A stretch of DNA of 59,997 nt from Deltaproteobacteria bacterium (GTDB lineage Bacteria; UBA10199; 2-02-FULL-44-16; JAAZCA01): assembly GCA_018645265.1 (NCBI GenBank), contig JABGOS010000063.1, positions 1 to 59,997 of the forward strand, written 5' to 3'. Positions 8,776 through 53,999 of the stretch are shown here, one piece after another. The notes under the pieces are model-generated. The model saw only the letters and a program-made list of their open reading frames with translations. It did no database searches and was not told the origin of the DNA. Numbering within the stretch: the first letter of the stretch is position 1; every line of letters starts with the position of its first letter. The translations under genes and the position numbers were made by a program.

Positions 8776-8784
8776 AGATAATTC

Positions 8785-26577: not shown

Positions 26578-29073
26578 CTACGTATTACAATCGCTATTCA
26601 CAGCACACTTCCATTCCACCCCAGTCTTATTAACCATCACCCTATTAAGATCTTCACCCGAAACACCAAATACGGCAGACAATACCTCTGAAACCCGTAT
26701 TATCGGAGGCTTATTTAAGATCGTCATCCCTAACACACCATCTCGAAGAACAGCAAGCTTATGAATAGCCTCCTTCAAATCCACTTCCTTATTAGATTTG
26801 CCACGCACCCTCATAAACGGAAAGGCTTCTGCGGAGTCGAAATTAGAGATCGAAGCTTCAAGATCAAGGCCTAAGGAAGAAAGGGTAACTTCATATTCAT
26901 TAGATAATACCGCATCCGATATAGACTCATAGGGGGGCTTCAAGAACCTAACCCTCTTCGCCATAATTCCTTCCGGAAATTTTCGCTCCACAGATTTCAA
27001 GACCTCAGCCTCATCGATGAACTTTGACAGCTCGATATCTACAAATTCCGTTTCACTTTCAGCACCAACTGGCAGGGCCTGCCCCACACTCACCTTGATG
27101 CGCGGATGAAATCCTTCGGAATATCTGAAAGGAAGCCCAGATGCGCGAAACCCGAATCGCAATGTATCGGTGACCTCCAAACCTCCTAGAAAAGCAGCGC
27201 GTCCCTTCTTTGAATATTGGATGCGATACTTATAAATTTCATGTTTCACGGTTTGTGGTTTGGAAGCTGAGGAGCTGACTTGATCCTGTGTAATCGCTTC
27301 CGAAGAAGCTATTCTATTTTTCACCTCATCAAAATCGCAGAGACCACAGCTAGTGCATTCATTCTGCACGCAATCCAAGGTCCCCTGCAGCCTCCTTGCC
27401 TTATCGCGCTCCTTCATTAAAAAATGCTTATCCGGTCCTACCTTCAGATGGTCCCAGGGAAACTCGAAACTGTTACCACGTCCCTCAAGATATCTGTCCG
27501 GGGAGATCTTCCTCTTTGCAAACGCCCTTCTCCATCTACCGATATCGAAGTGTTCATCCCAACCATCGAACCTCGCCCCATCCTCATGCGCAATAGCAAT
27601 AACATCAGCAAGCTCCGCCCCTCCACGGGCGAAGACCCCTTCAAGAAAACTCATCTCCGCCCTATGCCATTTATAATGAAGACCAGGCCTTCTGAGATGT
27701 TTCTTAAGGTAGGCCTGCTTTTCCACCGCTTCCTCGATGGAAATCTGCCTCTCCCACTGAAATGGAGTATGCGCCTTTGGCACGAACGTCGATGTTGAAA
27801 CGGTCACATCGGGACGCCTGTGATATTTTCTACCTATACTTAGACATCGATTGGCAATATCCACGATCCCCTTCAGGTCATCCTGAGTTTCGTCGGGAAG
27901 GCCGATCATGAAATAGAGTTTTACCGCCTGCCATCCATTCTTAAATATTTTTTCAACCGATACGTAGAGATCCTGATCCGTATTCCCCTTGTTGATCAGG
28001 TTCCTCATCCTCTCAGTTCCAGCCTCCGGGGCTAACGTAAAGCTGCCGGAACGCGAGGAACCCATAGAACTGAGCATGCGATCGGACATCGACTCGACAC
28101 GAAGACTTGGAAGCGAAGCATCAACAGGAAGTGGCGCACAGGCTTCGTGAACTTGACGGAGTGCTGATTCCAGTGGTGCCCAGTCACCGAGTGAAAGCGA
28201 CAGAAAGGAAAACTCCTCATAACCTGTGGAAAGGATACATTCGGAGGCAATTTTTGAAACGGTCGATGAATCGCGCTGTCTCACGGGACGATATATAAAT
28301 CCCGCCTGACAAAACCTACACCCCCTTGCACATCCCCTCGACACTTCCACGGCGGCACGCATCTGCGTAGTAGCGTAAGGGACTACAGGATGCACAGGGT
28401 ACGGTGCTGAATTTATATCGCATTGCAGGGCCCTCCCTACTCCACTCGCCATATTTCCCAACGAAGGAACATACACCCCGCTTATCCTTGCCAACCTCCG
28501 AAGGAGATCACCTCTATGCTCATCCTCCTTCTTGGAGACCTTCGCCATCTCGGAAATTTCAACTACCAGACCCTCCCCATCCCCGATAGCTATCGCATCG
28601 AAAAATGCGGCAACCGGTTCCGGATTGTAAGTACAAGGACCACCGGCGATTATCAGAGGATGAGACTCATCTCGATCTTTTGAATATATTGGAATGCCTG
28701 CAGATTTAAGGACGGTAAGAACGTTGGTATAGGTGAGCTCATAGCCCAGGCTAAATCCAAGGATATCAAATTCATCCAAAGCCCTGTTCGATTCCAGCGA
28801 GAAGAGCTTGATGCCGCGGCTGGACAGAGCTTCCTCCATATCGGCCCATGGTGTGAATGCCCTTTCAGCCAAAATATCATCACGGTCGTTCGCTACATTA
28901 TATAGTATTGAAAGACCTATATGGCTCGTTCCAATTTCATAACTATCTGGAAATACTAAACATATATGGATATCAACAGAATCCCAGGCCTTCTTGCGGC
29001 TGTTTAGCTCACCCCCGATATAGCGGTATGGCTTATTCACTGAACACAACATTTCAAAAAATTTTGAATCCAT
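26578..29073 (-). CDS. B12-binding-domain radical SAM protein fused to a DUF2344-like domain (TIGR03960/TIGR03936-type)
   Basis: VEVSRGCARGCRFCQAGFIYRPVRQR (CxxxCxxC); 831 aa. Lies immediately upstream of rng, as commonly seen for this family. Confidence 0.8.
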   Translation of the reverse strand: MDSKFFEMLCSVNKPYRYIGGELNSRKKAWDSVDIHICLVFPDSYEIGTSHIGLSILYNVANDRDDILAERAFTPWADMEEALSSRGIKLFSLESNRALDEFDILGFSLGYELTYTNVLTVLKSAGIPIYSKDRDESHPLIIAGGPCTYNPEPVAAFFDAIAIGDGEGLVVEISEMAKVSKKEDEHRGDLLRRLARISGVYVPSLGNMASGVGRALQCDINSAPYPVHPVVPYATTQMRAAVEVSRGCARGCRFCQAGFIYRPVRQRDSSTVSKIASECILSTGYEEFSFLSLSLGDWAPLESALRQVHEACAPLPVDASLPSLRVESMSDRMLSSMGSSRSGSFTLAPEAGTERMRNLINKGNTDQDLYVSVEKIFKNGWQAVKLYFMIGLPDETQDDLKGIVDIANRCLSIGRKYHRRPDVTVSTSTFVPKAHTPFQWERQISIEEAVEKQAYLKKHLRRPGLHYKWHRAEMSFLEGVFARGGAELADVIAIAHEDGARFDGWDEHFDIGRWRRAFAKRKISPDRYLEGRGNSFEFPWDHLKVGPDKHFLMKERDKARRLQGTLDCVQNECTSCGLCDFDEVKNRIASSEAITQDQVSSSASKPQTVKHEIYKYRIQYSKKGRAAFLGGLEVTDTLRFGFRASGLPFRYSEGFHPRIKVSVGQALPVGAESETEFVDIELSKFIDEAEVLKSVERKFPEGIMAKRVRFLKPPYESISDAVLSNEYEVTLSSLGLDLEASISNFDSAEAFPFMRVRGKSNKEVDLKEAIHKLAVLRDGVLGMTILNKPPIIRVSEVLSAVFGVSGEDLNRVMVNKTGVEWKCAVNSDCNT

Positions 29074-29263: not shown

Positions 29264-29320
29264 AAAAAAGGTGTCGGACACTTTTTTGGGAAAAGAGCAA
29301 AAAGGTGTCCGACACCTTTT
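29264..29320. repeat. palindromic repeat doublet (locus 3): AAAAAAGGTGTCGGACACTTTTTT + AAAAAGGTGTCCGACACCTTTT, centres 29276 and 29310 (34 bp apart)
   Basis: Read directly. Lies in the divergent intergenic region. The second copy ends 9 nt before ATG 29329 of the giant ORF. Centre bases are complementary (G then C). Confidence 0.9.
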
Positions 29321-29328
29321 GTGAACTT

Positions 29329-32300
29329 ATGAGCGATATTAAGAAAACAGGTGACGGTGGAGGAACTCCACCGCACGTTCCAGGCACACCACCAGCCGCG
29401 AGGGGAACCTCTCCCAAGCCAGATGGTGAGGTGCGGCCTGTCGATGGCTACTTGGCTGTGAAAGACGGTGCAACTGATGTAGCCGCAGGAGTTGGCCCCA
29501 CTTCAATGGCAGCACGGTTGGACCCAGCTGAAATAGAAGTATGGAACAGTGTGCGAATCTCCCAAGAAATACTCGGCCTCGCGAAAAGGGCTGCTGCTCT
29601 TTACAGCAGAGATAGCAGAAGCCATGCATCCGATGCGCGCAACATCTTCATTGGAGCACTCAGCTATCTTAAGGAGAAAGGTTTCGATCCAGAAACTAAG
29701 GAAGTTGGAAAAACCCCCACCGACTCACAGATCGCGACAGCCCTTCTCAGAGGATTCAACGGTTACTACAGCGACATGCCACCGGCCGCCAGAACTATCT
29801 CAAAATCAGATATCGAAAAAACATCAAGGGGTCGCTCAGCTGGTGGAAAAGTATTCGTATTATTCAAGAGCTTTATCGATGGTAGTTCCGCACAGCTAAA
29901 CTTAGTTGGTAAGAAACAACCCAAGGCACAGGCCAAGAAAAAGAGCCAGGCACCGACGTTCAAGGCGGAAACCGTTGCACATAGAGTTTTGACTGCACTG
30001 CACATCGTAACTGAAATCGAAGGGATGAGAGATGAACTTGCAGATCCCCACACATTGGATTCGATGCTCAAAGAGGCAAGAAGGATTGATCGAGATTTAA
30101 GATCCCTCGGCAGGGATGAAGCCACCCTTACACCAAAGCTCAGAAGAATCGCATCGCGAACGAGCGCGCTTCAGAAGATTAAAGAACTTGAGAGCATCCG
30201 CAACGACACACTAACGATTCTCACGAGAGAGACAACCGATTTTAACGATGAGAGAATTAACCAGTACGTCTCCAACATCAGCGATAATGTAGATGAATGG
30301 ATTCAGAAAAACACCGCTGATCTATATTGGATTGATCCAGAGGGAGAAAAGGTTGCGATAGCCCCGACACTATTCCAAACAATTGCTGACCAGGCAATCA
30401 GAAGCTACGTAGCAATTTGGCTCTCTGAGCAAAAGGCTGGAGAAACCAGAAGAAGGCTTGAAATAACAGAAAGCGCTTTCAAAAAAGCTCGCCTCCTCAT
30501 TACTCACAAGTTTGCATCCGTAAAAGAGGAGAAGGCGATAAAGGGTCTCATCGGCCGCCTCTTCCATCACGTCGCCAGACAGGATGCCAGCAGAATAGAG
30601 GGATCGAAAACGGACCGCAGCCCCGGCACCGCCGAGGAAGGATCGTTCAGAAACATCCATTCACTGACAAATCTGGAAGCGATCATCGGCCCGGATTTAA
30701 TTGCTGAACTTGATGGCTACTACGATGATATCCGAAGTGGTGTTGCAGGCACTGAAACAAATCACGATATATACGCTCAGTCATTCTATGAACTCTTTCT
30801 CCAATATATCAGAAGGGCGCACAATGAACACGGCGCTGAGTTTGGCCCCGAAGTTTTATCGAGAAGAGGCCTCGAAACTAGATTCATCAGAGCAATATTC
30901 CTAAGGGTTGATGGCGCGCGTGAGAGATTCGATGATAAAACGCTGGAACTTCTGATTAATTTTTTCACATCGCAATTTTCAGATTCATCGTCACTGATCA
31001 AATCAGAGGATGACATATCTAAACTCAAACCCTCTTTAGATGAATATGCCATAGAGGAAAGAGCGAAAGCAGCGTCCACACAGAGACTTGGCAACTTCAT
31101 CCCCTACGACCATAGAGTCTCCCATCGCGATTACGTATATCAGGTAATGGGAGTAGGAGAACCGTACTTCGAAGAAGACTTCAACGATCACAAATTAGGA
31201 ATCACATGGAAGAGCTCATTGGGTTGGGGAAGCATAAGAGAGAATCCCGATACCATAGGTGTTCTACATTGGCAGAGAATCGTCGAGAAGTGGTATGCCA
31301 TCCTCGCATTTGCTGAAACCGAAGGGATACTTACCGACGCAATGTTGGAAATGCCAGATCCAACAATAGAGAAACGCCCCGAAACGATAAGCACCGACCT
31401 TTGGAACGCCTACGCAGGCTGGAGGGTTTCAATTGGGAGAGGCGAGGACGTAACGGTTGAGCCAAGAGGCGAGGATGGCGTAAGTGCCATGATCTCAAGG
31501 TATGAATATCTCTCCGAGATCGCCGAAGCACAGGGTCAGAGAATCGACTTTCTTGAGTATTTGGCCACTATCTATCCACCGATCGCCAGGATGCTACTCC
31601 GAGCGGATAATGAAGGGGTCATCGAACTATCTGAACCGGACCCACTACACAACCGCTTCTATGAAACCTGGAGCTACATGACGTGGGCTCAACAGGTGCA
31701 TTTTGGTGGATATGAAGCTTATACCGGAGTCCGCGCGGCTACATTCGACTCTCATCGTGCTCAGGAAGTGATACCCGAACATTGGGATGCAAGAAGGTAC
31801 GCCACACCTGAAATGTCAGAGCGCTTGGGAATTGAACGAGAAGAATTGATAGTCATCATAAACGGATACCTGAGAAGTGTTCGCGAGATACTCCCAAGGG
31901 TTGATGTACGCGACACCAGAAACGCCAGACTCTCACCCGAACTTCGCAGAAGGAGAAGTAAATATACAATTAAGTTCAACGTCGTTGATAAGAGGGAGCA
32001 GTCGCTACCCACGATCAAAGCAGCTAAAGGTCTTGATAGAATCATCGATGATCACATCAAGGCTGGAGCCTACGACGGACGCATAGATTACATAAGAAAC
32101 TATTTAGGTACTATCAGCCTCCTAATTCCGAATGCGAGTGTTTCAGATCCTCAAAACGGCACGCTAGCACTTAGCGACATTGAGAATGAACTCGAAGCGG
32201 TTTCGAAGGAGCATCTCATCAAGTCATCGATATACAGAGATGCTACGACTACATCCTCAAGCTATTCCCCTGATGATATAAGAGAGGTAAGAGAGTTCTA

Positions 32301-35300
32301 CAAACATGACCTCGAAGGATTTGCTCGAAGGGTTTTACTCGAAGCTCCAATCACTGGAACTATTCATCTAGGTGAGGAAGACATTCACTTTCATCTACTC
32401 CACAGTCAAACACCATTCGTAGCCGATGGACATATTGGTCTTGCAATAGGAGAGATCGTCAGCACATCGAAACGAGAATCATGGGGTAATGATCTCACCT
32501 TAGAAGTCTTGAAGATAAAAGCAGCTGTAGCGCATCTTATGTCGATTGGAGAGCTAAGCCCATCCGACGCAAAAACAGGAGATCGCGTAGAAGCCGCCGT
32601 CACACCACTGATAGGGGGAGGGGAATTACTCGGTGTAGCCTTGCAAAAATTCCTCGGACTAAAGAACGGCGATTTCACGACATCGCCAAATACCGATGTA
32701 GAAAATGACGACACACCCCCACCACCCGAATCGATACCGACCATCCCAGCTGGGCCAAAGCTTCCCAAGGGAATAAAGTGGCAAAATCTGTTTGCACAAA
32801 TAGCAGCTGATGAACACGCTCTCACGGAATCCGATATAAAAATTGGAACTGCAGTTCTCCGCGACTACTTTGATGCCGTTAAATATCTCTACAGAAGATT
32901 CTGGCCACACACACTCGGCAGAATAGTCGAGGAGCACAAGTCCACAAACCCTGAAGGAATTCAGCGGGCAATCCTCGCTTTCTTTAATGGAATAGGTGTT
33001 CCAACGACGATAGAAGGCACATCCGCAAACGCCGATGGTGGCAGTGTAGATCATCACATCGCTACGTTGGCATTTGAAGATTACAGGGATCTCTTTCCCC
33101 AGCCTTCACAAAGTGGAAACAGAATTAGGCTGCCCCTAAATGAAGCTCTAGTAACAAGGCTCATAGAGCTACACATAGAAAACTATACAGGTTCATCCGC
33201 CCCTGATTTTACCGGAGTGACAAGGCTTGTTCATGCCAATATCGACGAATTCAACGCAGATGCCCTTGTTCCCCAGTCGAACGACTTGGAGATTCCACAT
33301 GACGGGCTGCTAGGAAGAACCCTGAGGCTACATGCCAACACATGGTTGGCTGGGAGAGCTCAAACCGCATTTGACTTACCCACACTAAGACGCGCCCTAT
33401 TCAATTTGAGCTGTGCGATAGGGTTCGGTACCACCCCCGAGAGAAGTCAGATTGGAGACGCTCTCTCATCGACTGGAAGGGAGGGTGCCACATCAGATCT
33501 CCATATCGACCTCTTGAATGATACAATCTCCACACAGATAGAATTACAAAATGCCCTATTAGAAATAGTAAAGGACCCGGAGATCGGGATATCAAGATTC
33601 TTCTCTGACAATTATCGCGCACCTCATCTTGATGTAACGAACCTAAGTGAGTTGGCTCAAGAATATGTTCGTCTGAGAATAACCAGCAACCTTCCGATAG
33701 ATATCGAAGCTATGGCGGAACATTTCGTTGACGCAAACCTATCGCAATACCCTGCAGTAGCACTTCAAGTTGCACACTCTTACAGAACGGTTCTCAGCGA
33801 ATGGATACAGTCTATCAGAAGCACATTCGGTGATCCTATCGAACTCGCACACCTAGCCATCCCCCCTTTAGCTGAAGATGCTGCTACGCCATCAGCTAGC
33901 TTGAATGATTTCAGGGAAAGGGTGGCAACCGAGATTGATGATGACATGACCTACGAAGGGTTGAATCAACTCGAAGCTCGTTATGGATATCTTGCAACCT
34001 TTCTAGGGCTGGAGCTCAGCCCAAGTCTTGATCAGGCCACTTCCGAAGCTTACACCAATTCAGTTCAGCCTGCACAATCGCAACTCGATGACGAATTAAC
34101 TGGAATAGTCGACAGGGTTGCAGAGGTTCATGGACGTTCGTATGAAATATACCTAGCAACGAAGAGTGTTGACCTGGATGGCGTGGATGAAGAGGCGGCC
34201 ACAGCGAGGCTGGCTGAGCTCGAAGCATCGTGGCAGATAATCACAGGTCTGCAGGATGAGGTCACGGCGCTATACTCATTAAAGGAACGTGCGGCCGCAA
34301 TTATAGAAATCAGGACGAACGATACCGCTAGGGATAGAGCCCTTGAAACTCTACCTTCAAATTTATTTGAAGTTCCAGAAGCCGCTCCAGAAGGAACAAT
34401 TGGGGTTTTAGAGCTTCAAATACAATCAGCAATGGCTTTTCTTAATTCAGCCGACGGCACGATGCTTGGCAACTCCACCGCCCTTGAAGAACATCTGTCA
34501 TCATTAGAATCCGAAAGACTGCAGGGAGTAGCTGCGAAGACAGTTGCTCTGGTGCACAATGCACGACAGGCCTTGGCAGACGCACACAATGAAGTCACAT
34601 CAAAGATCGATGAAACAACTAACACTCATATAGCTGACATCGAAGCACTGACTGTTGATTTGAGCGGTACCGGTGGAAATCGCGCCCTCTTCATCGATGC
34701 GGTGACAAGATTTACGGCTCTACGTGGTACTGCCATTACAGCCGCCCAGGAACTTTCCGCAAGTGATGGCATTCTCGATACGAAACTATCCGATACGGAG
34801 ACAGTCATAGCGGATGCCAGGCAAACGCTAACTGATGTTGGAGAGGTTCACGGAAAAAAACTGCAACAAGCGATATCCCAGTTGGTACATCTTTTAGAAA
34901 CAGCGAACGCCACAAGAAATAGTGTCACAGAAACCAACAGAACCCTCCTTGCCGCAATGGATACTGCAACCAAAGCCATTGCAACAGAAGAGTCTAAACT
35001 AACGCCAGCTGAACCTGCAAACCTTGCCAAACCGAAGCCGTTGCGTACGGATATCGACGATTCACTTTTTATAACTGGAAAACCAAAGTCAGGTGCCCAC
35101 AGACTCGCCGCTTCAAGCTTAGACAATATAACGCGCTCACAAATCCTCTCCACTAATTCGAAGAGCTATCTCATACCGCTAACTGATGCAGTAGCTATTA
35201 GAAGATGGAGGGATAGCGACAGAAGCGAAGCTTTACAACTGACATCAGTCTTAGGCGATGAGATCATCATCAATCCACACACCTACGGCATAAACATTAC

Positions 35301-38300
35301 AAGAATTGAAGATGCAGATCCAGCTTCACCGCTAGCTAATCTTTCTAAGAAGATAGGTATGCTGCTCCAAAGAAGGAGCAACGAGCTCATACTTCTTGGT
35401 GACTTGGCAAGAAGCGAAGAATCCACAGAATATTATAGGAACCTAATATCACATATAGCCTATCTGGATAGCGATACCAAGATTGATGAGATACACACTA
35501 CCATTCGAAGTTGGGCGGTAGCTAACAGAAGAATCCTAAATGCGAGATACCTCAAAAAGGAACGTTCATCAGATATTACGCACGACGATTACGATAGCGC
35601 AGTACATGCAAACTGGCACAATCTGTATGATACATACTTGAAAAATCCGCATATGGGTATGCTCGTAGTTAGAAATGGCCTCCCTGGTCGTGAAGAGGAT
35701 ATCATATGGGCTGGACCTGTCGATACGAGGGATGCGCAAAGAAGCATTGATACAAAGGGTAATACATTTAGATACATGCACGGCGCAACTGGAGAATGGA
35801 CGGAGATAGATTTAAGGAGTTTGCCTGGCGTAAACTCCAAAACAACACTATTCATTGCGCCCTTTTATAGAACATCTGTGGAAGGCATACTGACTCTAAG
35901 AACAAACTGGGTAATGAGCGGTGATCCATCGCTTTTAGATCTGGGCTGGATATATCAGATGGCGAACCAGTCAGTCGAACTGGACGACTTTCCCGTATCA
36001 ACCGAAAGACAACACTTTGGACAATTCATCCATGGACTGATCTTACCCACAAGCCGAACCCCCATCGGTGAAGGACCGCCGCTCACCTTGCATGAAACAC
36101 AGACACTAGCAACGACCGCATATCATGTAGCTATGAACAGACCCTCCCCTATTAAATTTGAAGCTGTAAGCGATAGGGCGCTTATGGGATGGATTGAATC
36201 AATTCCAGAGCGGATTGAATTTTCGGATGACAGGGATATTACAACCGCCGAGTTTAGAGCTGAGCTAAAAAAACCTGAATTCAGGGAGTTCATAGCAAAG
36301 CTTTATCTCGCTTACCATTATTCCGACGATGAAGAATCTGAATCTATTGCTCTAAGAACTTTTTTGGCAATTGCCACCACCGGTGCATGGCACACAGAAC
36401 ATAGTGTGGTCCACACCATCGAAAGAATCATTCGCGAAAATACAAACAAAATATATAGAAACATGCACGACCCACTCTTCGCACCTATAGATGAGGGGTT
36501 GGAGAGAGCGCATCCCGAAGTCGGAGCGGTTGGCAGGGGCCAGCTCTGGGCGGTAATAAAAGCCTTGGAACCCAACATGGCGGTACAACTCCCAAAGAGT
36601 TGGCCGATGCATAAGATCAAAGCTAGATTGGCAAAGGCGCCAGCGTGGATTAAACCGATGATGCACAGGCTACCATCGATGGCCAAACTGATCACCATTG
36701 TAGCCCTTACATACGAATCCCTCCCGAAGGATTTTAGAGATAAGTTCATGGGTCTATTCTACCTCTGCTTCGACAACAGCAGAATCCCGAGCGATACCAT
36801 GAAAGCATCCATAGAAGATCGCTTACGGAAACTGTACGCCTCTCAATCGCAAGCTGGCGTAGCGGGACATGACACAATAATAAAAGCTCTCAGCGCAAAT
36901 TTAACTGATGATTTTACATTAGCGAGATGGCTTACCGGCGAAACCGATCCCTGGATACAGAGATCGAACAGCTGGCAGACGGCAGATCCTGCATATAGAC
37001 TGAGAATGCTCGCTCCTGAACTAATGAAAGCCAGACGGTTCATCCTAGAGTTTGCTGGTGAAAAACTTGCTGCGGGCAGACAAGCAAATCCCATATCAGA
37101 ATCGATGAAGCGCTTCGTAGAAAGAAATCCGGAACTCAAATCAGCAATTATAGTCATCTACTTTCTACTCATGAAGATGGATGAGGTGTATCGACACAAG
37201 ATCTTCCAGTTCTTTGAACTACAAGCACAAGACCAGAGACCTGAGCTCTTCGCTGAAATGATTACAAATGGGGACATGCTATCGGAAATTAGAAGGACGT
37301 TAAGAGAACCCTTCGGTGATGATGGCGCTGTAACAAATGCATTTCAGATCACCGGCATGGAGGAACCCGAACTTCCTCTTGAGCTACTATCACCAGTTGC
37401 AAGGCTGCAATATCTAGCACCTAATATCTTCAAGCAGGACCCCGCCTTCGTAGAAGCTACCATTAAAGTTTCAAAGACAAACGGACAACTGACGAATCTG
37501 ACATCGCTCGCTCGCAACCATCGGGAACTTAGACCAGCTATAGCTGCACTAGCGCTCGCAATGCTGCGCTTTGATAGAGGTAAACGTTATCAAGTTTACG
37601 ATGCCTTTGATAAATTACCCAATCTTACCCCTGAAGATTTCGTGGACACCCTCATAGAACTCCTACTCTTGGATGATATGAACGCAATATGCGGTGACAA
37701 TCCAATTTCGGAAAATGAGCTTCTAATTCCAACCTTTGAACTCGACGCTGAAGACCAACTACCTTCAACCCACATTGAATATCGCATAGATGAACTCGAA
37801 ATGTTGCCACGGGTGGGAAGTCAGGCCTTCCAACAACTCGTAAGATCCCACTTGGACCAGGAAGCTACGACATACGAAGATGAGCTGCGAAGGAACGGAC
37901 AATATAAAGGTCAAAGTAAAACCGTTATTAAAAGGCACGTCGCACAGTTATTCAATGAAACTGACATGGCCCATAAGAAGGTAATCCTCCTCGCTAAACT
38001 CATCGATCCTACAGAATCGTTCTATGATAGGATGACAAAACATAACCAAGCAAAGCTCGCAACGAGATTGGACAGTCTTCAAAAAGATAAACACGCGGTA
38101 TCTAGATTGATAACTTGGTTCGGATACACTTTCATGATCAAGAACAGGGATGAAGTTCTGGCAGCGAGAGATCGCTTGAAGGCAGATGGTGGATCATCTT
38201 CTGGACCTTCGGGCTCATCCGGCCCTCAAGGTGCCGGTGGCGGATCAATTGTAGGTGGTGGTGGGGAAATAAGCGGCCACGACAAAGCAGGTTTTAGTTC

Positions 38301-38583
38301 AACTCAAGCATCTCCTGTTATACCAACTCCGCAATACGGACCCGCGTCCTCATCACCCATACATTCAATGGGGGCGACAAGACCTGTGTGGGTTACGAGC
38401 AGTCATATGCCAGGAATTTCAGCCGCAAGATTTCACCCAACATCTCCGACATGGCTTCCAACACATGTTAATCAAAATGTAATTGGGGGAGCTATACCTA
38501 CAATGATGGGAGCTTCTCAACTTTTCTCTCCAGTCAACATGGCGAGTCTCTCTACAATGAGTCCAACACCGTTTATGAGATAG
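29329..38583 (+). CDS. giant hypothetical protein (~3,084 aa from ATG 29329), no recognisable domain
   Basis: Uninterrupted 9.3-kb reading frame. No signal peptide, TM segment, Walker A, HExxH or Cys-cluster motif seen. Pro/Gly-rich N-terminus, largely helical-looking body, Gly/Ser then Pro/Ser/Thr/Met-rich tail. The start is uncertain because no SD is present, and the GTG at 29305 lies inside the palindrome. Confidence 0.85.
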   Translation: MSDIKKTGDGGGTPPHVPGTPPAARGTSPKPDGEVRPVDGYLAVKDGATDVAAGVGPTSMAARLDPAEIEVWNSVRISQEILGLAKRAAALYSRDSRSHASDARNIFIGALSYLKEKGFDPETKEVGKTPTDSQIATALLRGFNGYYSDMPPAARTISKSDIEKTSRGRSAGGKVFVLFKSFIDGSSAQLNLVGKKQPKAQAKKKSQAPTFKAETVAHRVLTALHIVTEIEGMRDELADPHTLDSMLKEARRIDRDLRSLGRDEATLTPKLRRIASRTSALQKIKELESIRNDTLTILTRETTDFNDERINQYVSNISDNVDEWIQKNTADLYWIDPEGEKVAIAPTLFQTIADQAIRSYVAIWLSEQKAGETRRRLEITESAFKKARLLITHKFASVKEEKAIKGLIGRLFHHVARQDASRIEGSKTDRSPGTAEEGSFRNIHSLTNLEAIIGPDLIAELDGYYDDIRSGVAGTETNHDIYAQSFYELFLQYIRRAHNEHGAEFGPEVLSRRGLETRFIRAIFLRVDGARERFDDKTLELLINFFTSQFSDSSSLIKSEDDISKLKPSLDEYAIEERAKAASTQRLGNFIPYDHRVSHRDYVYQVMGVGEPYFEEDFNDHKLGITWKSSLGWGSIRENPDTIGVLHWQRIVEKWYAILAFAETEGILTDAMLEMPDPTIEKRPETISTDLWNAYAGWRVSIGRGEDVTVEPRGEDGVSAMISRYEYLSEIAEAQGQRIDFLEYLATIYPPIARMLLRADNEGVIELSEPDPLHNRFYETWSYMTWAQQVHFGGYEAYTGVRAATFDSHRAQEVIPEHWDARRYATPEMSERLGIEREELIVIINGYLRSVREILPRVDVRDTRNARLSPELRRRRSKYTIKFNVVDKREQSLPTIKAAKGLDRIIDDHIKAGAYDGRIDYIRNYLGTISLLIPNASVSDPQNGTLALSDIENELEAVSKEHLIKSSIYRDATTTSSSYSPDDIREVREFYKHDLEGFARRVLLEAPITGTIHLGEEDIHFHLLHSQTPFVADGHIGLAIGEIVSTSKRESWGNDLTLEVLKIKAAVAHLMSIGELSPSDAKTGDRVEAAVTPLIGGGELLGVALQKFLGLKNGDFTTSPNTDVENDDTPPPPESIPTIPAGPKLPKGIKWQNLFAQIAADEHALTESDIKIGTAVLRDYFDAVKYLYRRFWPHTLGRIVEEHKSTNPEGIQRAILAFFNGIGVPTTIEGTSANADGGSVDHHIATLAFEDYRDLFPQPSQSGNRIRLPLNEALVTRLIELHIENYTGSSAPDFTGVTRLVHANIDEFNADALVPQSNDLEIPHDGLLGRTLRLHANTWLAGRAQTAFDLPTLRRALFNLSCAIGFGTTPERSQIGDALSSTGREGATSDLHIDLLNDTISTQIELQNALLEIVKDPEIGISRFFSDNYRAPHLDVTNLSELAQEYVRLRITSNLPIDIEAMAEHFVDANLSQYPAVALQVAHSYRTVLSEWIQSIRSTFGDPIELAHLAIPPLAEDAATPSASLNDFRERVATEIDDDMTYEGLNQLEARYGYLATFLGLELSPSLDQATSEAYTNSVQPAQSQLDDELTGIVDRVAEVHGRSYEIYLATKSVDLDGVDEEAATARLAELEASWQIITGLQDEVTALYSLKERAAAIIEIRTNDTARDRALETLPSNLFEVPEAAPEGTIGVLELQIQSAMAFLNSADGTMLGNSTALEEHLSSLESERLQGVAAKTVALVHNARQALADAHNEVTSKIDETTNTHIADIEALTVDLSGTGGNRALFIDAVTRFTALRGTAITAAQELSASDGILDTKLSDTETVIADARQTLTDVGEVHGKKLQQAISQLVHLLETANATRNSVTETNRTLLAAMDTATKAIATEESKLTPAEPANLAKPKPLRTDIDDSLFITGKPKSGAHRLAASSLDNITRSQILSTNSKSYLIPLTDAVAIRRWRDSDRSEALQLTSVLGDEIIINPHTYGINITRIEDADPASPLANLSKKIGMLLQRRSNELILLGDLARSEESTEYYRNLISHIAYLDSDTKIDEIHTTIRSWAVANRRILNARYLKKERSSDITHDDYDSAVHANWHNLYDTYLKNPHMGMLVVRNGLPGREEDIIWAGPVDTRDAQRSIDTKGNTFRYMHGATGEWTEIDLRSLPGVNSKTTLFIAPFYRTSVEGILTLRTNWVMSGDPSLLDLGWIYQMANQSVELDDFPVSTERQHFGQFIHGLILPTSRTPIGEGPPLTLHETQTLATTAYHVAMNRPSPIKFEAVSDRALMGWIESIPERIEFSDDRDITTAEFRAELKKPEFREFIAKLYLAYHYSDDEESESIALRTFLAIATTGAWHTEHSVVHTIERIIRENTNKIYRNMHDPLFAPIDEGLERAHPEVGAVGRGQLWAVIKALEPNMAVQLPKSWPMHKIKARLAKAPAWIKPMMHRLPSMAKLITIVALTYESLPKDFRDKFMGLFYLCFDNSRIPSDTMKASIEDRLRKLYASQSQAGVAGHDTIIKALSANLTDDFTLARWLTGETDPWIQRSNSWQTADPAYRLRMLAPELMKARRFILEFAGEKLAAGRQANPISESMKRFVERNPELKSAIIVIYFLLMKMDEVYRHKIFQFFELQAQDQRPELFAEMITNGDMLSEIRRTLREPFGDDGAVTNAFQITGMEEPELPLELLSPVARLQYLAPNIFKQDPAFVEATIKVSKTNGQLTNLTSLARNHRELRPAIAALALAMLRFDRGKRYQVYDAFDKLPNLTPEDFVDTLIELLLLDDMNAICGDNPISENELLIPTFELDAEDQLPSTHIEYRIDELEMLPRVGSQAFQQLVRSHLDQEATTYEDELRRNGQYKGQSKTVIKRHVAQLFNETDMAHKKVILLAKLIDPTESFYDRMTKHNQAKLATRLDSLQKDKHAVSRLITWFGYTFMIKNRDEVLAARDRLKADGGSSSGPSGSSGPQGAGGGSIVGGGGEISGHDKAGFSSTQASPVIPTPQYGPASSSPIHSMGATRPVWVTSSHMPGISAARFHPTSPTWLPTHVNQNVIGGAIPTMMGASQLFSPVNMASLSTMSPTPFMR

Positions 38584-38585
38584 TT

Positions 38586-38608
38586 AAAAAAAGTGTCGGA
38601 CACTTTTT
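38586..38608. repeat. palindromic repeat, single copy (locus 4): AAAAAAAGTGTCGGACACTTTTT, centre 38598
   Basis: Starts 3 nt after the giant ORF stop (38583) and ends 3 nt before the rimO stop (38611). This is the position of a bidirectional terminator. Confidence 0.9.
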
Positions 38609-38610
38609 GG

Positions 38611-39930
38611 TCAACCGACGACTTTGCCTACGAGGTCATAATGATGGGCTTCGGTGATTTCCACGTAGGCAAAATCACCTGCTGCTGCGAGACCTTCGTT
38701 TATGTAGATTACCCCATCAAACTCGGGGGCCTGGCCTTCATGTCTCGCCTGAAGGAGCATATCCGTTTCGTCGGATGAACCCTCCACGAGGACACGAACT
38801 ATCTTTCCTAAAAACATATTATTGTTGCTTAAGGATACTTCCTTTTGCAGTTCCATGATCTCAGTTTGCCTTGCAATGGCAACATCGTGTGGCACCTGAT
38901 CCTTTAACTTCGCCGCGGGCGTCCCCTCCTCTGGAGAAAAGGTGAACACCCCCAGGTGCTCAAACCTAGCCTCACCAACGAAATCTAGGAGCTCATCAAA
39001 CTCCTCCTGAGTCTCCCCTGGAAAGCCAACTATCAAAGAGGTGCGTATCGAAACGTTAGGAATTTTTTTCCTAAATTCCTCGAGAAGCTTTCTGATTTCC
39101 TTGCCGCCGCCCTTCCGCTTCATGCGCTTCAAAACCCTATCGTTTATATGCTGTATCGGCAGATCAATATATGAACAGATATCCTGACAATCCCTCATTA
39201 TCTCAATGACATCCGCTGGAAATTTATGGGGGTAGGTATACAGAAGCCTAAACCACCTCTCACTTCCCTCCAAATCAACGAGTCCTTCCAAAAGGCTCGC
39301 AAGATCCGTTTTGATATCCTTCCCATATGCTGTCAGATCCTGGGCAATGAGATTTATCTCCTTGATATCCTTAGCGAGCATCCCTCTTGCCTCTTCAACT
39401 ATTGAATCGACAGGCCTGGAACGAAACTTTCCGCGAATTTTTGGAATTATACGGAAGGAGCAAGGGTGAAAACACCCCTCGGCTATCTTGAGATATGCCG
39501 AATGATGTGGGGAGGTATGAAGCCTCGCAGTTTCATGATCGTAGATAAATGTCGATTCCTTAATTTCATTTCTAGGCTTTCCATCCCAGTCCTCAACTAT
39601 CTGGGCGACACGATAGAATTCGCCAGTCCCTATAAATACATCGACCTCTGGGAAGAGCTCCGAAAGCTCGCCCTCATAACGTTGAGGAAGACAGCCTGCG
39701 ACCATAAGCAACTTACAGCTTCCACTTTTTTTGAGTTCTGTCATTTCGAGAATGGTATCTATAGCTTCCTTCTTCGCATCCTCGATAAATGCACACGTAT
39801 TGATAACTATAATTTGCGCCTTGTTTGGATCTTCGACGAGCTCGTAGCCTACGCCGGTCAGCTGACCAAGCATCACCTCGGAATCTACGAGATTCTTAGG
39901 ACAACCCAGGGATATAAAATGAAGTTTCAT
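38611..39930 (-). CDS. rimO: ribosomal protein S12 methylthiotransferase RimO-like (radical-SAM motif reads CxxxCxxR)
   Basis: MKLHFISLGCPKNLVDSE, INTCAF, AGCL (UPF0004 cysteines), TSLIVGFPGETQEEF and a TRAM-like C-terminus. The cluster motif is EGCFHPCSFR instead of ...C..C. Confidence 0.85.
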   Translation of the reverse strand: MKLHFISLGCPKNLVDSEVMLGQLTGVGYELVEDPNKAQIIVINTCAFIEDAKKEAIDTILEMTELKKSGSCKLLMVAGCLPQRYEGELSELFPEVDVFIGTGEFYRVAQIVEDWDGKPRNEIKESTFIYDHETARLHTSPHHSAYLKIAEGCFHPCSFRIIPKIRGKFRSRPVDSIVEEARGMLAKDIKEINLIAQDLTAYGKDIKTDLASLLEGLVDLEGSERWFRLLYTYPHKFPADVIEIMRDCQDICSYIDLPIQHINDRVLKRMKRKGGGKEIRKLLEEFRKKIPNVSIRTSLIVGFPGETQEEFDELLDFVGEARFEHLGVFTFSPEEGTPAAKLKDQVPHDVAIARQTEIMELQKEVSLSNNNMFLGKIVRVLVEGSSDETDMLLQARHEGQAPEFDGVIYINEGLAAAGDFAYVEITEAHHYDLVGKVVG

Positions 39931-43241: not shown

Positions 43242-43781
43242 ATGATATATATACTCTGTGATGAAATAAATTCGGGAAAGAGCACATTCGTGCTTGGTCT
43301 GTCGAAGAAGCTGGCGCAGGATGGGCTCTGCATTGGTGGATGGACGACCCCACCACACATCGAGAGAGAGACTAAGGTCGGCCACGACTTTGTAGCGATA
43401 AACGACGGTATAATGGATGAACCTATTCCCTACACACGCCCACACCCTTTCGACAATTCATTCCAATGGAAAAAATATTTCTTCAGCAAGTCAGCCTTCA
43501 AGAAAGCTAGGCTTCTCAACTTCAACTGCGACCTCTTCATAGTCGATGAGATAGGACCGCTCGAACTCGATGACAAGCAGGGCTTCTTTCAGATGATAAA
43601 TAAATTTGTTGAGATCCCTCAAAACACCCTTTTAGTACTCAGAAAAGGGCTGTACAAATCCATTCCGGAGATCATCGGAAACGCTGAACACGCACTCTTT
43701 TCACTTGAATCCAAAGAACAATTGGCCAACGAAATCATCAACATACATCCACAAAAAGTGTCCGACACTTTTCACACATAA
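43242..43781 (+). CDS. P-loop NTPase, THEP1/DUF2478-like
   Basis: Walker A-like EINSGKST near the N-terminus and Walker B LFIVDEIGPLE; 179 aa. The last 9 codons (KVSDTFHT) are encoded by the palindromic repeat. Confidence 0.65.
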   Translation: MIYILCDEINSGKSTFVLGLSKKLAQDGLCIGGWTTPPHIERETKVGHDFVAINDGIMDEPIPYTRPHPFDNSFQWKKYFFSKSAFKKARLLNFNCDLFIVDEIGPLELDDKQGFFQMINKFVEIPQNTLLVLRKGLYKSIPEIIGNAEHALFSLESKEQLANEIINIHPQKVSDTFHT

Positions 43782-43806
43782 AACCCAAAAAGTGTCCGAC
43801 ACCTTT
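43753..43806. repeat. palindromic repeat doublet (locus 5): AAAAAGTGTCCGACACTTTT + AAAAAGTGTCCGACACCTTTT, centres 43763 and 43797 (34 bp apart)
   Basis: Read directly. The first copy overlaps the 3' end of the NTPase gene. The second lies about 60-70 nt upstream of the B12-radical SAM gene. Confidence 0.9.
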
Positions 43807-43864: not shown

Positions 43865-45439
43865 GTGATCGCCGCTATGACAAACCTACCAATCAAAAAA
43901 ATAGTATTCATCGAACCGAAGGCCCCTGGAAAGCACGTCTATTCCAAGTGGGGTTTTCCAAGACTGGGAATCATACAGCTTGCAACAATCCTCGAGAAGG
44001 CCGGTTATGAAGTAAAAGTATTCATCGAGGAGATAAAAGGGATCGACTGGGATGATGTGTTCGATGCCGATGCTGTAGGCATATCCACTATCACATCGAC
44101 AGCACCTCGCGCCTACGAAATGGCCCGACAGATAAGAAGAACAGGAACGCCAGTTTTCATGGGTGGACCTCACGTATCCTTTTTGACCGATGAAGCGCTG
44201 GAACACTGTGATTTCGTCATCCGTGGCGAAACGGAAGAAGCTATCATACCTTTCCTAAAAGCACTCTCGGGTGGCGGCAAATTTGAGGAGATACCAGGTC
44301 TCTGTTGGCACTATGGAAACAGGGTCAACAAAAATCCATTTCCGGAAGCGTGTCCAGATCTCGACAAATACCCGATGCCAAATTTCGATCTCGTCTGTGG
44401 CTCGAAGAAAACAAAAGTCGACCTATCGATCACACCAATTATGACTTCGCGCGGATGTCCGTTTGGATGTAACTTCTGCTCCGTCACCAGAATGTTCGGA
44501 AGAAAGTATCGTTTCCGCTCAGTAGATAATGTGATGGAGGAATTGCATGCAAGAAAACCTGAATGGATATTCTTCTACGATGATAACTTTGCTGCAAATA
44601 CAACGCACACAAAAACACTCCTAAAAAGAATGATCAATGAGAAGATCACCCCGAACTGGATGGCACAGGTTCGGATTGATGTGGCTAAGGATCCCGAACT
44701 GATGGATCTGATGGTACAGTCGAACTGCAAGTACGTCTACATAGGGCTTGAATCCATCAACCCAAAAACTCTGGAATCCCTCGAAAAGGGACAGACAAAG
44801 GAAGACATTGAACATGCGATCAATGTAATTCAAGGACGCGGTATACGCATACATGGCATGTTCATATTCGGTGCCGATCACGATGATCCGAAGACGATCA
44901 GACAGACGGTTAAGTTTGCGAAGAAGAACAATCTATCCTCAGTTCAATTCATGATTTTAACCCCACTGCCCGGCACGCCCGTCTTCGAACAGATGGACAG
45001 GGAAGGTCGTCTTCTTTCCAAAGACTGGGGATATTACGACGCGCATCATGTCGTCTTCAAACCTAAAAAGATGAATTACCTTCAGCTACAGAAGAAGACC
45101 CTCAGCGCAACATTGAAATTCTATTCCTTACCCAGAATCTTAGACAAGATCGATCGGTTCGACATCTGGTCAGTGATCATCAGCTCCTATGGCTGGCGCG
45201 CATCGAGACAGATGCGAAAGAGTACGCGCGACTTCGTCAAGCAGATGAAGGGAAAGTACAAGGAATACGGTGCCGATATCGATACGGCGAGACACAATAT
45301 CGGCATCAAGGCTAGAAAGACTTCAGAGGATGTAAATGAGTTCTTCCACTCAATCAACCTCGATAACATCAGAAAGATGAAGGAAAAGCAGATTGAGAAG
45401 TGGAGGGCATCCAAAGCCGCTTCCAAGCAGTCCGTTTAG
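43865..45439 (+). CDS. B12-binding-domain radical SAM protein (524 aa)
   Basis: N-terminal Rossmann-like B12-binding region and SRGCPFGCNFCSV (CxxxCxxC). The start is either GTG 43865 or ATG 43877. Lys-rich C-terminal extension. Confidence 0.85.
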   Translation: MIAAMTNLPIKKIVFIEPKAPGKHVYSKWGFPRLGIIQLATILEKAGYEVKVFIEEIKGIDWDDVFDADAVGISTITSTAPRAYEMARQIRRTGTPVFMGGPHVSFLTDEALEHCDFVIRGETEEAIIPFLKALSGGGKFEEIPGLCWHYGNRVNKNPFPEACPDLDKYPMPNFDLVCGSKKTKVDLSITPIMTSRGCPFGCNFCSVTRMFGRKYRFRSVDNVMEELHARKPEWIFFYDDNFAANTTHTKTLLKRMINEKITPNWMAQVRIDVAKDPELMDLMVQSNCKYVYIGLESINPKTLESLEKGQTKEDIEHAINVIQGRGIRIHGMFIFGADHDDPKTIRQTVKFAKKNNLSSVQFMILTPLPGTPVFEQMDREGRLLSKDWGYYDAHHVVFKPKKMNYLQLQKKTLSATLKFYSLPRILDKIDRFDIWSVIISSYGWRASRQMRKSTRDFVKQMKGKYKEYGADIDTARHNIGIKARKTSEDVNEFFHSINLDNIRKMKEKQIEKWRASKAASKQSV

Positions 45440-45575
45440 CTCTACAACATCTATATATGTAATAATATCAATGTGTTATATTAACCATAAAGACATGGTA
45501 AACATGTATTTATCGCACAACTTTTTAAGTTTAACCGCGATAAATGGACATATGTAAAACTCAGTGGAGAATGAA

Positions 45576-46670
45576 ATGAGTGCTCAAGTATTAAGGACAA
45601 CAAATTTTGGCAGTCGCTTTTCGCAGTTTCTGGCACAGCAGGCAATGGTACCCACAGTGCCGGCCAGCCTGACAAGCGAACCATCACTAACATACAAGTA
45701 TGCGGAAGCCCTCCAGATGACAGGAACGCCTGCCGCAGCAGAAGCTGCAATGCCCGTCGCAGTGGCACCACCTGTCGAGGCATTGATCGCCCTTCCTTTT
45801 AAACAATTTTCAGAAGATCAGCAGGGTCTGCTCAGCAGCGTAGTCCAAATGCATTCTAGAGGTAAACCGGAACAATCCCCAGCATTCGTAGTCAACGCAA
45901 GATATCCGTTGAATCGCTTCGTCGATCAATTGGTGGCTATATCCTTACCAATGAACGAGCTCGTCGAATGGTCTGACAAACTTCCAGCAGAGCAACTCCG
46001 GACCCTACATACGCGTTTCCGCCCACAGAAATCCGATGATTTCTTTGAAATAGGCATGAAGAAATTTATGTTAGCAGCTACTTCACGTTTTGGCTTAGAG
46101 GCTTCTACAACGGTACTCGAAGAAGTTATTGCTAAAAAGGTTGCCCATAGATTTGAAGAATCCGCGAAGTTTTTCATGAAAATGAGGTATTTTGGTGCAG
46201 CCGCTATGGCATTCGAGATGGCTGCTATAGAAGCAGACACCCTAAAACCTCAACGCGGTTCAGACTTGGAAAGACAGGTTCGGAGTTGGCGTGGAGAAGC
46301 CGCACACTCCTGGTTGCAATCACTATCCTCTGACGACGATCACATCACATATACTTTGAGACTTCAGAGGGCATTATATTTTGGCTGGAACGCTGCCACA
46401 CCCGACGACTATCTCCACATACTAGGTCTTTCAACCAGAGCAAACTCGATCAATGGCAATCATGACGAAACCGCAAATGACCTACTTAGAACAGCATTGT
46501 ACAGATTGCAGCACGCACAAAGGGTGGATAGTGCAATATGGCAACATGTCGCGACAAGCATAGGTGGGGCCATAAAAATATGGGATGACTACGGCATCGC
46601 TGAAAGGAAGCCACGGGAGCTGACACAGATTTTTGCAACGGCAGCAAATAGATTTTCATCCGAAGGTTAG
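45576..46670 (+). CDS. hypothetical protein, paralog family member A (364 aa)
   Basis: GGAG 8 nt upstream of ATG 45576. Shares FSQFLAQQAMVPTVP, FFMKMRYFGAAAMAFEMA and HSWLQSLSSDDD blocks with the next gene. Confidence 0.7.
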   Translation: MSAQVLRTTNFGSRFSQFLAQQAMVPTVPASLTSEPSLTYKYAEALQMTGTPAAAEAAMPVAVAPPVEALIALPFKQFSEDQQGLLSSVVQMHSRGKPEQSPAFVVNARYPLNRFVDQLVAISLPMNELVEWSDKLPAEQLRTLHTRFRPQKSDDFFEIGMKKFMLAATSRFGLEASTTVLEEVIAKKVAHRFEESAKFFMKMRYFGAAAMAFEMAAIEADTLKPQRGSDLERQVRSWRGEAAHSWLQSLSSDDDHITYTLRLQRALYFGWNAATPDDYLHILGLSTRANSINGNHDETANDLLRTALYRLQHAQRVDSAIWQHVATSIGGAIKIWDDYGIAERKPRELTQIFATAANRFSSEG

Positions 46671-53327: not shown

Positions 53328-53999
53328 TCAATAGCACCTAACGAACCATTGCATGATCAGGTTCGACGCTGCATGAAAGAGAACTGATGCTGTAATGGTC
53401 CCCGTACGTTCGCGAAGATATCCGAAAAGAAGTGCCGGAAAGAATATAGCGAAGTGCCACCATCTATAATAAACTATCGAATGAGCTAAAGCGAAGACCA
53501 GTGAGGTTATTATCCAACCCCATCCGAGCTTAACACCTAATATCTTCCACCTCTTCTCGCACATCATATCCATCGCAGATTGAAAATACCCTCGAAAGTA
53601 AAACTCCTCAGGAAGCGCCACCAGAAATATTTGAAACGCTGCAGCACTCCAAAAATGAGGGTACTCCACAAACTTAAAGCCGCCCATCTTGAAAACATAC
53701 ATCTGCCAAAGATGCGCCCCTATCAGAAATAACGGAAATACGATAAGCGATGTGATCAGAAATACGATGAATGAACGAAAGTAATCGCCAACACCATCAT
53801 CCAGAAAGTCGATTTTCCTTCCCCTTCTCCAAATCACAAGAATAGGCGAATAGAGAAATAAAACCGCCACGACGACAGGCAGGATCGAATCGATAATCGA
53901 TATCCCCTTGAGCATCGTAACTGCGCGCGTCAGCACGAGAAGTACAACCGTAAGGGTCGTCAGCTCCTTTATCAAGGATCTGTTTGCAGTGGGATTCAT
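53328..53999 (-). CDS. CPBP-family intramembrane glutamic endopeptidase (CAAX protease-like)
   Basis: EEFYFRG, FALAHS and HAASN motifs in a polytopic membrane protein. Confidence 0.8.
   Translation of the reverse strand: MNPTANRSLIKELTTLTVVLLVLTRAVTMLKGISIIDSILPVVVAVLFLYSPILVIWRRGRKIDFLDDGVGDYFRSFIVFLITSLIVFPLFLIGAHLWQMYVFKMGGFKFVEYPHFWSAAAFQIFLVALPEEFYFRGYFQSAMDMMCEKRWKILGVKLGWGWIITSLVFALAHSIVYYRWWHFAIFFPALLFGYLRERTGTITASVLFHAASNLIMQWFVRCY

Follow-up and report, generated by a model that had tools for sequence, protein, structure and literature searches.

What is a protein of 3,084 residues and no recognisable kind doing between two bacterial housekeeping operons, and how did its gene come to be there? 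This question is raised by a 59,997-nucleotide stretch of DNA from a Deltaproteobacteria bacterium (contig JABGOS010000063.1; hereafter the window), in which a single + strand gene, running from an ATG at 29329 to a stop codon ending at 38583, encodes a 343-kDa product with a pI of 5.4, referred to here as the giant. A preliminary description regarded this gene as an ORFan inserted between the two operons. Our analysis shows that the giant gene is a real, native and selectively constrained gene at a fixed chromosomal position. Its product belongs to a family of giant proteins (about 2,000–4,400 residues) which has not been described before, is inherited vertically and, as far as sampled, is confined to a rare, uncultured, delta-proteobacteria-like lineage (labelled 'uncultured Myxococcales' at NCBI).

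With regard to the gene itself, one unbroken + strand frame extends from 29305 to 38583 (3,092 codons counted from a GTG), of which 3,084 codons and the stop follow ATG 29329. This ATG is taken as the real start because the N-termini of orthologues (MTDIKRTGDGG) match that of the giant (MSDIKKTGDGGG) at this position, and because the upstream GTG at 29305 sits within a palindromic repeat. The closest orthologue is found in an assembly named 'uncultured Myxococcales bacterium' (L081, GCA_964458295.1); it is 66% identical to the giant over residues 1–1789 and 55% identical over residues 1798–2781, and its gene is cut by the contig end. Purifying selection is evident over the full length of the giant: compared with this orthologue, the proportion of nonsynonymous differences (pN) ranges from 0.12 to 0.40 along the whole protein versus a saturated synonymous proportion (pS) of 0.72–0.80, with the lowest pN in residues 441–1125 and the highest in the disordered N-terminal part and the stalk (see below). 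Since pN is far below pS, and since homologous giant open reading frames (ORFs) of 2.7–4.4 kaa are present in independent assemblies, the frame is not an assembly artefact, and the earlier claim of a genuine single frame at 29329–38583 is confirmed. The base composition of the gene also resembles that of the other window genes (GC 0.471 vs 0.469; GC at third codon positions, GC3, 0.44 vs 0.475). In the orthologue, a stop and a frame change at 2957–2971 of the L081 contig split the gene into ORFs of 1,792 and at least 985 residues; either the gene is truly split, or the short-read co-assembly contains an error here.

Relatives of the giant were first reached through its divergent radical S-adenosylmethionine (rSAM) neighbour, by retrieving the contigs of the closest relatives of that gene. 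An exhaustive HMMER search of 1.84 billion representatives with giant residues 400–1599 as query returned 43 relatives at E ≤ 1e-3, 33 of them at E ≤ 1e-10, and these representative clusters refute the notion of an ORFan. Nearly all are 1,900–4,400 residues long and share a core corresponding to giant residues ~680–1600; homologues of 2,728 and 3,533 residues, for example, from loci whose rSAM gene is ~54–55% identical, are 25–26% identical to the giant over ~2,000–2,600 residues (E 1e-148 and 3e-163). The ORFan appearance arose only from a miss of the word-indexed protein search, which returned the query alone when the whole giant was used and no match when a four-sequence core alignment was used. 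However, that very database includes the 2,728-residue homologue (P0124) as a representative and files the closest orthologue under a 285-residue fragment representative; as these known homologues went unreturned, the word-indexed negatives are uninformative, and it was synteny-guided retrieval together with exhaustive HMMER that recovered the family. The name given to P0124 at JGI, 'PAS domain-containing protein' (L086, 1621–9807), was rejected, as neither a PAS nor any other Pfam domain was found in it at E ≤ 0.1. One subfamily of ~2,000 residues does not have the N-terminal ~500 residues; its match begins ~150 residues in, and its genes are situated after two paralogous genes without assigned function and before greA. 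Two candidate split genes were rejected because phmmer, hidden Markov model (HMM) and jackhmmer comparisons gave no similarity: that the N-terminal part of this subfamily is split into two upstream genes (locus L091), and that genes of locus L088 are split homologues of the giant.

The family is rare, and its host belongs to a deep, sparsely sampled, delta-proteobacteria-like lineage. A family pattern scan of the genome collection found members in two metagenome-assembled genomes (MAGs) only, both named 'uncultured Myxococcales bacterium', and a scan of the genome collection with another protein (P0141) found no family member. Neither in the IMG/VR viral contigs nor, by pattern scan, in the JGI metagenome collection was a relative found, and an exact look-up of the giant led to no contig. 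The host GyrA is at best 64% identical to that of 'Deltaproteobacteria bacterium' MAGs and ~59% identical to that of Thermodesulfobacteriota, and the rSAM gene of the window reached at best 43–46% identity in the genome-collection scan, the two family-bearing MAGs excepted.

The chromosomal position of the giant gene has been kept across this lineage. The gene is divergent from one encoding a TIGR03960-type B12-binding radical-SAM/DUF2344 fusion (26578–29073, − strand), which served as syntenic anchor, and convergent with rimO (UPF0004 + Radical_SAM + TRAM; 38611–39930, − strand). In six other loci (L081, L086, L089, L093, L094 and L095), where the identity of the rSAM protein to the window copy goes from 80% down to 48–56%, a homologue of the giant is divergent from the same rSAM gene. 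rimO lies downstream in L094 and L095, the two loci that reach that far; both also carry a ~440-residue IPT/TIG-lactonase-like gene downstream, and L094 additionally ychF, the arrangement being that of the window. The giant is ~25% identical where the adjoining rSAM protein is ~55% identical. Locus L088, with an rSAM protein 53% identical to that of the window, has no homologue of the giant; an S41/PDZ peptidase and three unrelated genes are found there. Because homologues occupy the same position in six loci, and because GC and GC3 are native, the giant is not an insertion between operons as had been proposed, and the accompanying remark that no mobility gene lies beside it was right. The proposal had also pointed to the possibility that distant relatives carry the same, already annotated gene in this interval: the occupant is indeed the same, and no meaningful annotation is attached to it.

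The preliminary description further stated that a palindromic repeat brackets the gene. Copies are indeed present at both ends: two of them (cores 29271–29281 and 29305–29315) are located at 29266–29320 in the 255-nt divergent intergenic region, and one (38588–38608, core 38593–38603) is located where the giant gene and rimO converge, between their stop codons; there its shape, with A-run and T-run flanks, suggests a bidirectional terminator. They do not mark a unit, however. The sequence GTGTCSGACAC occurs 10 times in the window versus 0.37 expected, mostly at gene boundaries and in pairs 25–34 nt apart (including 562–597, 1469–1504, 29271–29315, 38593–38603 and 43758–43802, with A-/T-run flanks and a terminator-like shape), and it is present in none of 95 fetched loci. 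It is a species-specific dispersed repeat and looks like a repetitive extragenic palindrome (REP)-like or bidirectional-terminator element; its dispersal through the window and absence from relatives rule out the palindromes as bounds of a mobile unit.

The giant shares a common architecture with its family, part of which is covered by an AlphaFold2 (AF2) model of residues 680–1665 built from a 32-sequence family multiple sequence alignment (MSA; pLDDT 81.9, pTM 0.65); a first model from a 4-sequence MSA was poor (pLDDT 58.6). Family members begin with a short N-terminal motif and a Pro/Gly/Ser-rich stretch. In the giant this part comprises residues 1–100 (29329–29628), with the motif M-x-x-I-K-x-x-G followed by a Pro/Gly/Ala/Ser-rich sequence (22% Pro+Gly) that is probably disordered; the Pro/Gly-rich N-terminus of the preliminary description is found at residues 10–33 (29356–29427). 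Residues 1–100 are the least conserved part of the giant (48% identity to the orthologue), and both family members and the cut gene of L084 have N-termini of the same style. Residues 101–680 (29629–31368) make up a conserved, helical N-terminal region, recognised by invariant columns in four-sequence alignments and containing a Lys-rich linker near residues 195–215; the shallow-MSA model predicts helices here at low confidence, and the subfamily of ~2,000 residues does not have this region.

The motif-bearing core that follows starts with an alpha/beta part (residues 681–1125, 31369–32703), which is the most conserved part of the family, with 78% identity to the orthologue, the lowest pN (0.124) and an AF2 pLDDT of mostly 80–93. 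Its motifs EDVTVEPR, (D/E)(Y/F)L(A/C)xIYP and PExWDxRRY are kept across 20–32 distant members. A Pro-rich interdomain linker (residues 1126–1146, 32704–32766; the sequence DDTPPPPESIPTIPAGPKLP itself occupies residues 1127–1146, 32707–32766) appears disordered in the model, with a pLDDT below 50 at model residues 436–461. It leads to a second conserved domain (residues 1147–1600, 32767–34128), which is modelled as helices only (pLDDT 75–95) and carries the motifs FWPxTL, IGV, DYxxLFP and LPxxGLL. The model ends in three helices of 41–44 residues (giant residues 1475–1515, 1567–1610 and 1621–1662) that lead into the Ala/Glu/Leu/Thr-rich stalk of the family. In the giant, this stalk comprises residues 1601–1890 (34129–34998) and is by composition a long-helix, coiled-coil-like stretch rich in Ala, Thr, Leu and Glu and poor in aromatics (A 14–16%, T 8–14%, aromatics 1.6–5%); such composition is restricted to residues ~1600–1890, or ~10% of the length of the protein.

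The C-terminal half of the family consists of repeated modules. In the giant it is introduced by a linker and the start of the variable half (residues 1891–2409, 34999–36555; 56% identity to the orthologue; motifs DPxLxxLGW, PPxxLxExQ and HPExxxVG), and continues with three divergent tandem modules of ~135–145 residues each (residues 2410–2545, 2546–2690 and 2691–2830; 36556–37818). Profile–profile comparison by hhalign relates module 2 to module 3 (95.9% probability, E 6e-9) and module 1 to module 2 (68% probability, E 5e-5), which supports the tandem modules noted earlier; they escaped detection by plain BLAST and by an ungapped dot-plot. A TGxxxPW-like motif closes module 1 (residue 2536) and module 2 (residue 2675). 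This motif is found twice in the giant, four times in P0127 and five times in P0130, and variation in module copy number probably accounts for much of the length range of the family. At the C-terminus of members, a Lys/Gly/Ser spacer and a Pro/Ala/Thr segment lead, often by way of an acidic stretch, to an uncharged end rich in Met, Pro, Ala and Gly. The corresponding part of the giant (residues 2941–3084, 38149–38580) has by composition a Gly/Ser spacer, a Pro/Ser/Thr segment and a Met/Pro-rich hydrophobic end, the latter being a candidate targeting peptide, and both ends of the giant are low-complexity and probably disordered. The Pro/Gly N-terminus, Pro-rich linker, Ala/Thr/Leu/Glu stretch and Gly/Ser–Pro/Ser/Thr/Met tail of the preliminary description could thus all be located in the protein.

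None of these parts resembles a known domain. A motif search of the giant found no Walker A, HExxH, CxxC, RTX or LPXTG motif; the protein has no signal-peptide-like N-terminus and no transmembrane (TM) helix, the highest 19-residue Kyte–Doolittle mean being 1.41, and the earlier statement that it carries no catalytic or binding signature, signal peptide or TM helix was borne out. When the giant and up to 19 family members were compared with Pfam, NCBIfam, PHROGs and PADLOC, no match was obtained, and sequence and profile searches of the PDB likewise gave none. The AF2 model of residues 680–1665, in which the alpha/beta part (680–1125) is followed by the disordered Pro linker, the all-alpha part and the three terminal helices, gave a best Foldseek E of 0.67 in the PDB and 0.42 in BFVD, with query-normalised TM-scores of 0.12 or less. 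The conserved N-terminal half (residues ~100–1660) thus has no detectable sequence or fold relative in the libraries searched. In an alignment of 32 members, the invariant or nearly invariant columns hold mostly Pro, Gly, Leu, Ala and aromatics; His, Cys, Ser, Lys and Glu are invariant at no position, which argues against an enzyme.

The previous finding that no described giant-protein family claims the giant also held. A regular-expression search of the giant found neither GGxGxD nor the full RTX nonapeptide, and no RTX-type Pfam domain was found in 19 members; in the same members, Pfam gave no match at E ≤ 0.1 to the condensation, adenylation, thiolation, ketosynthase (KS) or acyltransferase (AT) domains of nonribosomal peptide synthetases and polyketide synthases (NRPS/PKS). 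The RHS/YD repeats, the PAAR, TPS (two-partner secretion) or VgrG delivery domains and the C-terminal toxin beside an immunity gene that mark polymorphic toxins (Rhs, CdiA, MafB, PAAR-linked) gave no Pfam, NCBIfam or PADLOC match, and the downstream gene is rimO. Giants of phages and mobile elements (tape measure, tail fibre, jumbo-phage) gave no PHROGs, IMG/VR or BFVD match, and the gene context is a housekeeping one. A parallel in provenance is provided by the giants of the Omnitrophota type, which like the present gene come from MAGs of uncultured bacteria and are largely unannotated by sequence; many are reported to have numerous TM regions along with divergent DEAD-helicase domains of SecA, and domains for attachment and carbohydrate degradation are suggested by structure prediction (West-Roberts et al., bioRxiv 10.1101/2023.11.21.568195). 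The giant differs from those described there in that it has no TM helix and no recognisable domain, including no match to a DEAD or SecA domain, and in length it falls short of the largest ones by an order of magnitude.

Two compositional properties of the family may offer clues to its location. The first is depletion of Cys, which makes up 0.21% of the residues in 35 family members longer than 1,500 residues versus 1.34% in the 36 other ORFs of the window, a 6.5-fold difference; the giant itself has three (0.1%), at residues 1362, 2480 and 2788. Low Cys content is typical of proteins that are exported unfolded or exposed outside the cell. The window also contains three adjacent ORFs of 332–368 residues (45564–46670, +; 46715–47788, +; 47902–48900, −) that are free of Cys (0%) and carry neither a signal peptide nor a domain matched by Pfam. 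The first two, whose N-termini are similar, are paralogues (E 6e-26), none of the three has the C-terminal tail of the giant, and they may be structural proteins.

The second property is this tail. The last 30 residues of the giant include one charged residue, five Met and four Pro; in the family, compared with 548 background ORFs, the last 30 residues have a median of 4 vs 8 charged residues and means of 2.2 vs 0.6 Met and 3.1 vs 1.2 Pro. When strict criteria were applied (at most 3 charged residues, Met+Pro at least 5, Cys below 0.3%), 0 of 994 background ORFs passed, and four ORFs from loci of the lineage did so, namely the giant, two homologues and a protein of 1,412 residues from L088. 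More broadly, tail-bearing proteins are encoded next to homologues or at the rSAM locus of L088: 580, 535 and 1,412 residues in L088 (70–7802, −), 593 and 638 residues in L091 (4259–7998, +), 777 residues in L095 (12440–14773, +), and 1,104 and 995 residues in L176 (13270–19581, +). These proteins have 0–0.5% Cys and no match to Pfam or to the family HMM; the L176 protein of 1,104 residues (P0164) gave only a weak local match to the core of the giant. Their C-terminus consists of a Gly/Ser/Pro/Thr spacer and then a hydrophobic end rich in Pro, Met, Ala and Gly, with an acidic stretch between the two in some. In L088, a gene for a PDZ + S41 C-terminal processing-type peptidase (8001–9803, +) lies between the rSAM gene and the three tail-bearing genes; speculatively, this peptidase could recognise hydrophobic C-termini.

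Like the C-terminal sorting tags discovered by comparative genomics (PEP-CTERM, MYXO-CTERM, GlyGly-CTERM and the C-terminal domain (CTD) of type IX secretion (T9SS) substrates), the tail follows a low-complexity spacer and recurs, with similar composition, on otherwise unrelated proteins of one lineage. It differs from them in having no PEP, Cys or GG signature, no clear TM helix with a basic cluster and no folded CTD; unlike the CTERM tags, it is rich in Pro, Met, Ala and Gly and ends without a charge cluster. In the giant, neither a PEP motif, a Cys in the tail, a TM-grade segment nor a signal peptide was found.

Taking these observations together, we tentatively favour the reading that the giant is a non-enzymatic structural protein which is exported and builds an extended structure on or outside the cell. 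The protein would leave the cytoplasm without a Sec or Tat signal, and the structure would be a fibril, adhesin or coat-like one, in which the conserved core could act as the assembly or anchoring unit, the helical stalk as a spacer, and the fast-evolving, copy-variable modules as an exposed interaction surface. The Gly/Ser/Pro spacer and the uncharged Met/Pro-rich C-terminal peptide would serve as a targeting signal, in common with other Cys-poor proteins encoded by neighbouring genes. We prefer export to a cytoplasmic scaffold because of the Cys depletion, the presence of the tail on unrelated neighbours, and the fast divergence with variation in modules; the acidity of the giant also speaks in favour of export. 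A parallel is offered by the giant type I-secreted adhesins (RTX/LapA/SiiE-type), with which the giant shares great size, acidity, near-zero Cys, no Sec signal, a Gly-rich segment before an uncleaved-looking C-terminal tail, and variable module copy number. Unlike these adhesins, it has no GGxGxDxUx repeats and no Ig-like or beta-rich domains, its modelled parts are helical and its tail is Pro/Met-rich, and no sequence or fold similarity to them was found.

Several observations weigh against export. Neither the window nor any fetched locus contains export machinery, be it an ATP-binding cassette (ABC) transporter with membrane-fusion protein (MFP) and TolC, a type III secretion system (T3SS) or a type VI secretion system (T6SS); the first three were sought among the Pfam-annotated genes of the 60-kb window and the related loci. 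To our knowledge, the type I signals described are poor in Pro and Met, whereas the tail of the giant is rich in both. Neither RTX nor Ig-like repeats nor beta-rich adhesin modules are present in the giant, and its modelled parts are mostly helical; it should be underlined that the structure models cover residues 445–1665 only, and that the C-terminal half lies outside them. The likeness among the tails rests on composition without an alignable motif. Depletion of Cys is also seen in cytoplasmic coiled-coil scaffolds, and the constant placement among ribosome- and RNA-related genes agrees just as well with a housekeeping role inside the cell.

A bolder version of the export reading, which we regard as rather unlikely, is that the spacer and Met/Pro peptide constitute a new sorting or secretion tag on co-encoded, Cys-free and mostly very large proteins of this lineage, the giant, whose conserved core of 1,000 residues would have an unprecedented fold, being the main substrate or building block of an undescribed export or assembly system and of a cell-surface structure.

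The alternative that survives best, possible though doubtful, is that the giant stays in the cytoplasm as a scaffold or cytoskeleton-like organiser, whose core binds a partner and whose helices and modules serve as spacers or landing pads; as part of the same doubtful possibility, the disordered tails would mediate membrane or hub contacts or self-association. The giant has neither signal peptide nor TM helix, its long helices and its Ala/Thr/Leu/Glu-rich stalk would suit such a role, its invariant residues do not look catalytic, its gene has a fixed place among housekeeping genes (rng, rplU, rpmA, obg, rimO and ychF) across the lineage, and no secretion genes are nearby. Like coiled-coil cytoskeletal and scaffold proteins (crescentin, Scy/FilP, AglZ and HubP-type), it carries no enzymatic signature, has long helices, disordered acidic segments and a stalk low in Cys and aromatics, and is lineage-specific and fast-evolving. 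The resemblance is partial: about 10% of the giant is coiled-coil-like, most of the rest being predicted or likely folded, it exceeds those scaffolds three- to tenfold in size, its conserved 1,500-residue core has no counterpart in them, and there is no homology. Moreover, the 6.5-fold Cys depletion extends over the globular and the helical parts alike, and elsewhere in the genome Cys and Fe–S radical-SAM enzymes are plentiful; the very similar uncharged Met/Pro tail on unrelated, co-encoded, Cys-poor proteins is more like a sorting tag; and the giant diverges much faster than its neighbours.

It is improbable that the giant is a secreted effector or toxin which serves in predation or in dealings with a host and whose disordered N-terminus or C-terminal tail directs its delivery by a type III, IV or VI-like system. 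The paucity of Cys, the disordered termini with no Sec signal and the fast evolution would agree with this, as would the Myxococcales label of the lineage, since Myxococcales include predators. However, no toxin, enzyme or delivery domain (PAAR, RHS, VgrG or two-partner secretion (TPS)) was found in 19 members, no small immunity-like gene or chaperone adjoins the giant, catalytic-type invariant residues are absent, and secretion-system genes are absent from every fetched locus; in addition, the gene is inherited vertically at one locus and is not island-borne.

That the giant is an ORFan unique to its lineage, a recent insertion between the two operons with the palindromes as its limits, is scarcely credible: its orientation opposite to most neighbours, the palindromes at both ends and the word-indexed search that gave the query alone are outweighed by homologues at the same position in six loci with an rSAM neighbour 48–80% identical, by 43 family clusters and a native base composition, by palindromes that are dispersed in the window and absent from relatives, and by the failure of that search to return a 2,728-residue homologue present as a representative.

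Some further features of the window deserve mention. It is unusually rich in radical-SAM genes (26578–29073, 38611–39930, 43865–45439 and 18439–19833), the last of which (− strand) encodes a TatD-type DNase domain (residues 8–260) fused to a radical-SAM domain (residues 281–440), a fusion that is also annotated in L088. An ORF of 557 residues (10102–11775, −) matches Peptidase_M2, the angiotensin-converting-enzyme family, over its full length (E 7e-22), and this family is uncommon in bacteria. Two paralogous genes for Lgt, the prolipoprotein diacylglyceryl transferase (53999–54811, −, and 58835–59629, −), are found within 6 kb, flanking lspA and ileS.

With regard to the biology of these bacteria, a protein of 343 kDa is costly to make; that it has been kept at one locus throughout the history of the lineage, under purifying selection, implies an important role. 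The family, with about 40 clusters, clear motifs and a domain map, offers a basis on which structural biology and cell biology can approach a little-known lineage of sediment and soil. If the shared tail is indeed a sorting signal, it would provide a handle, by way of comparative genomics, on a new export or assembly pathway and its substrates.

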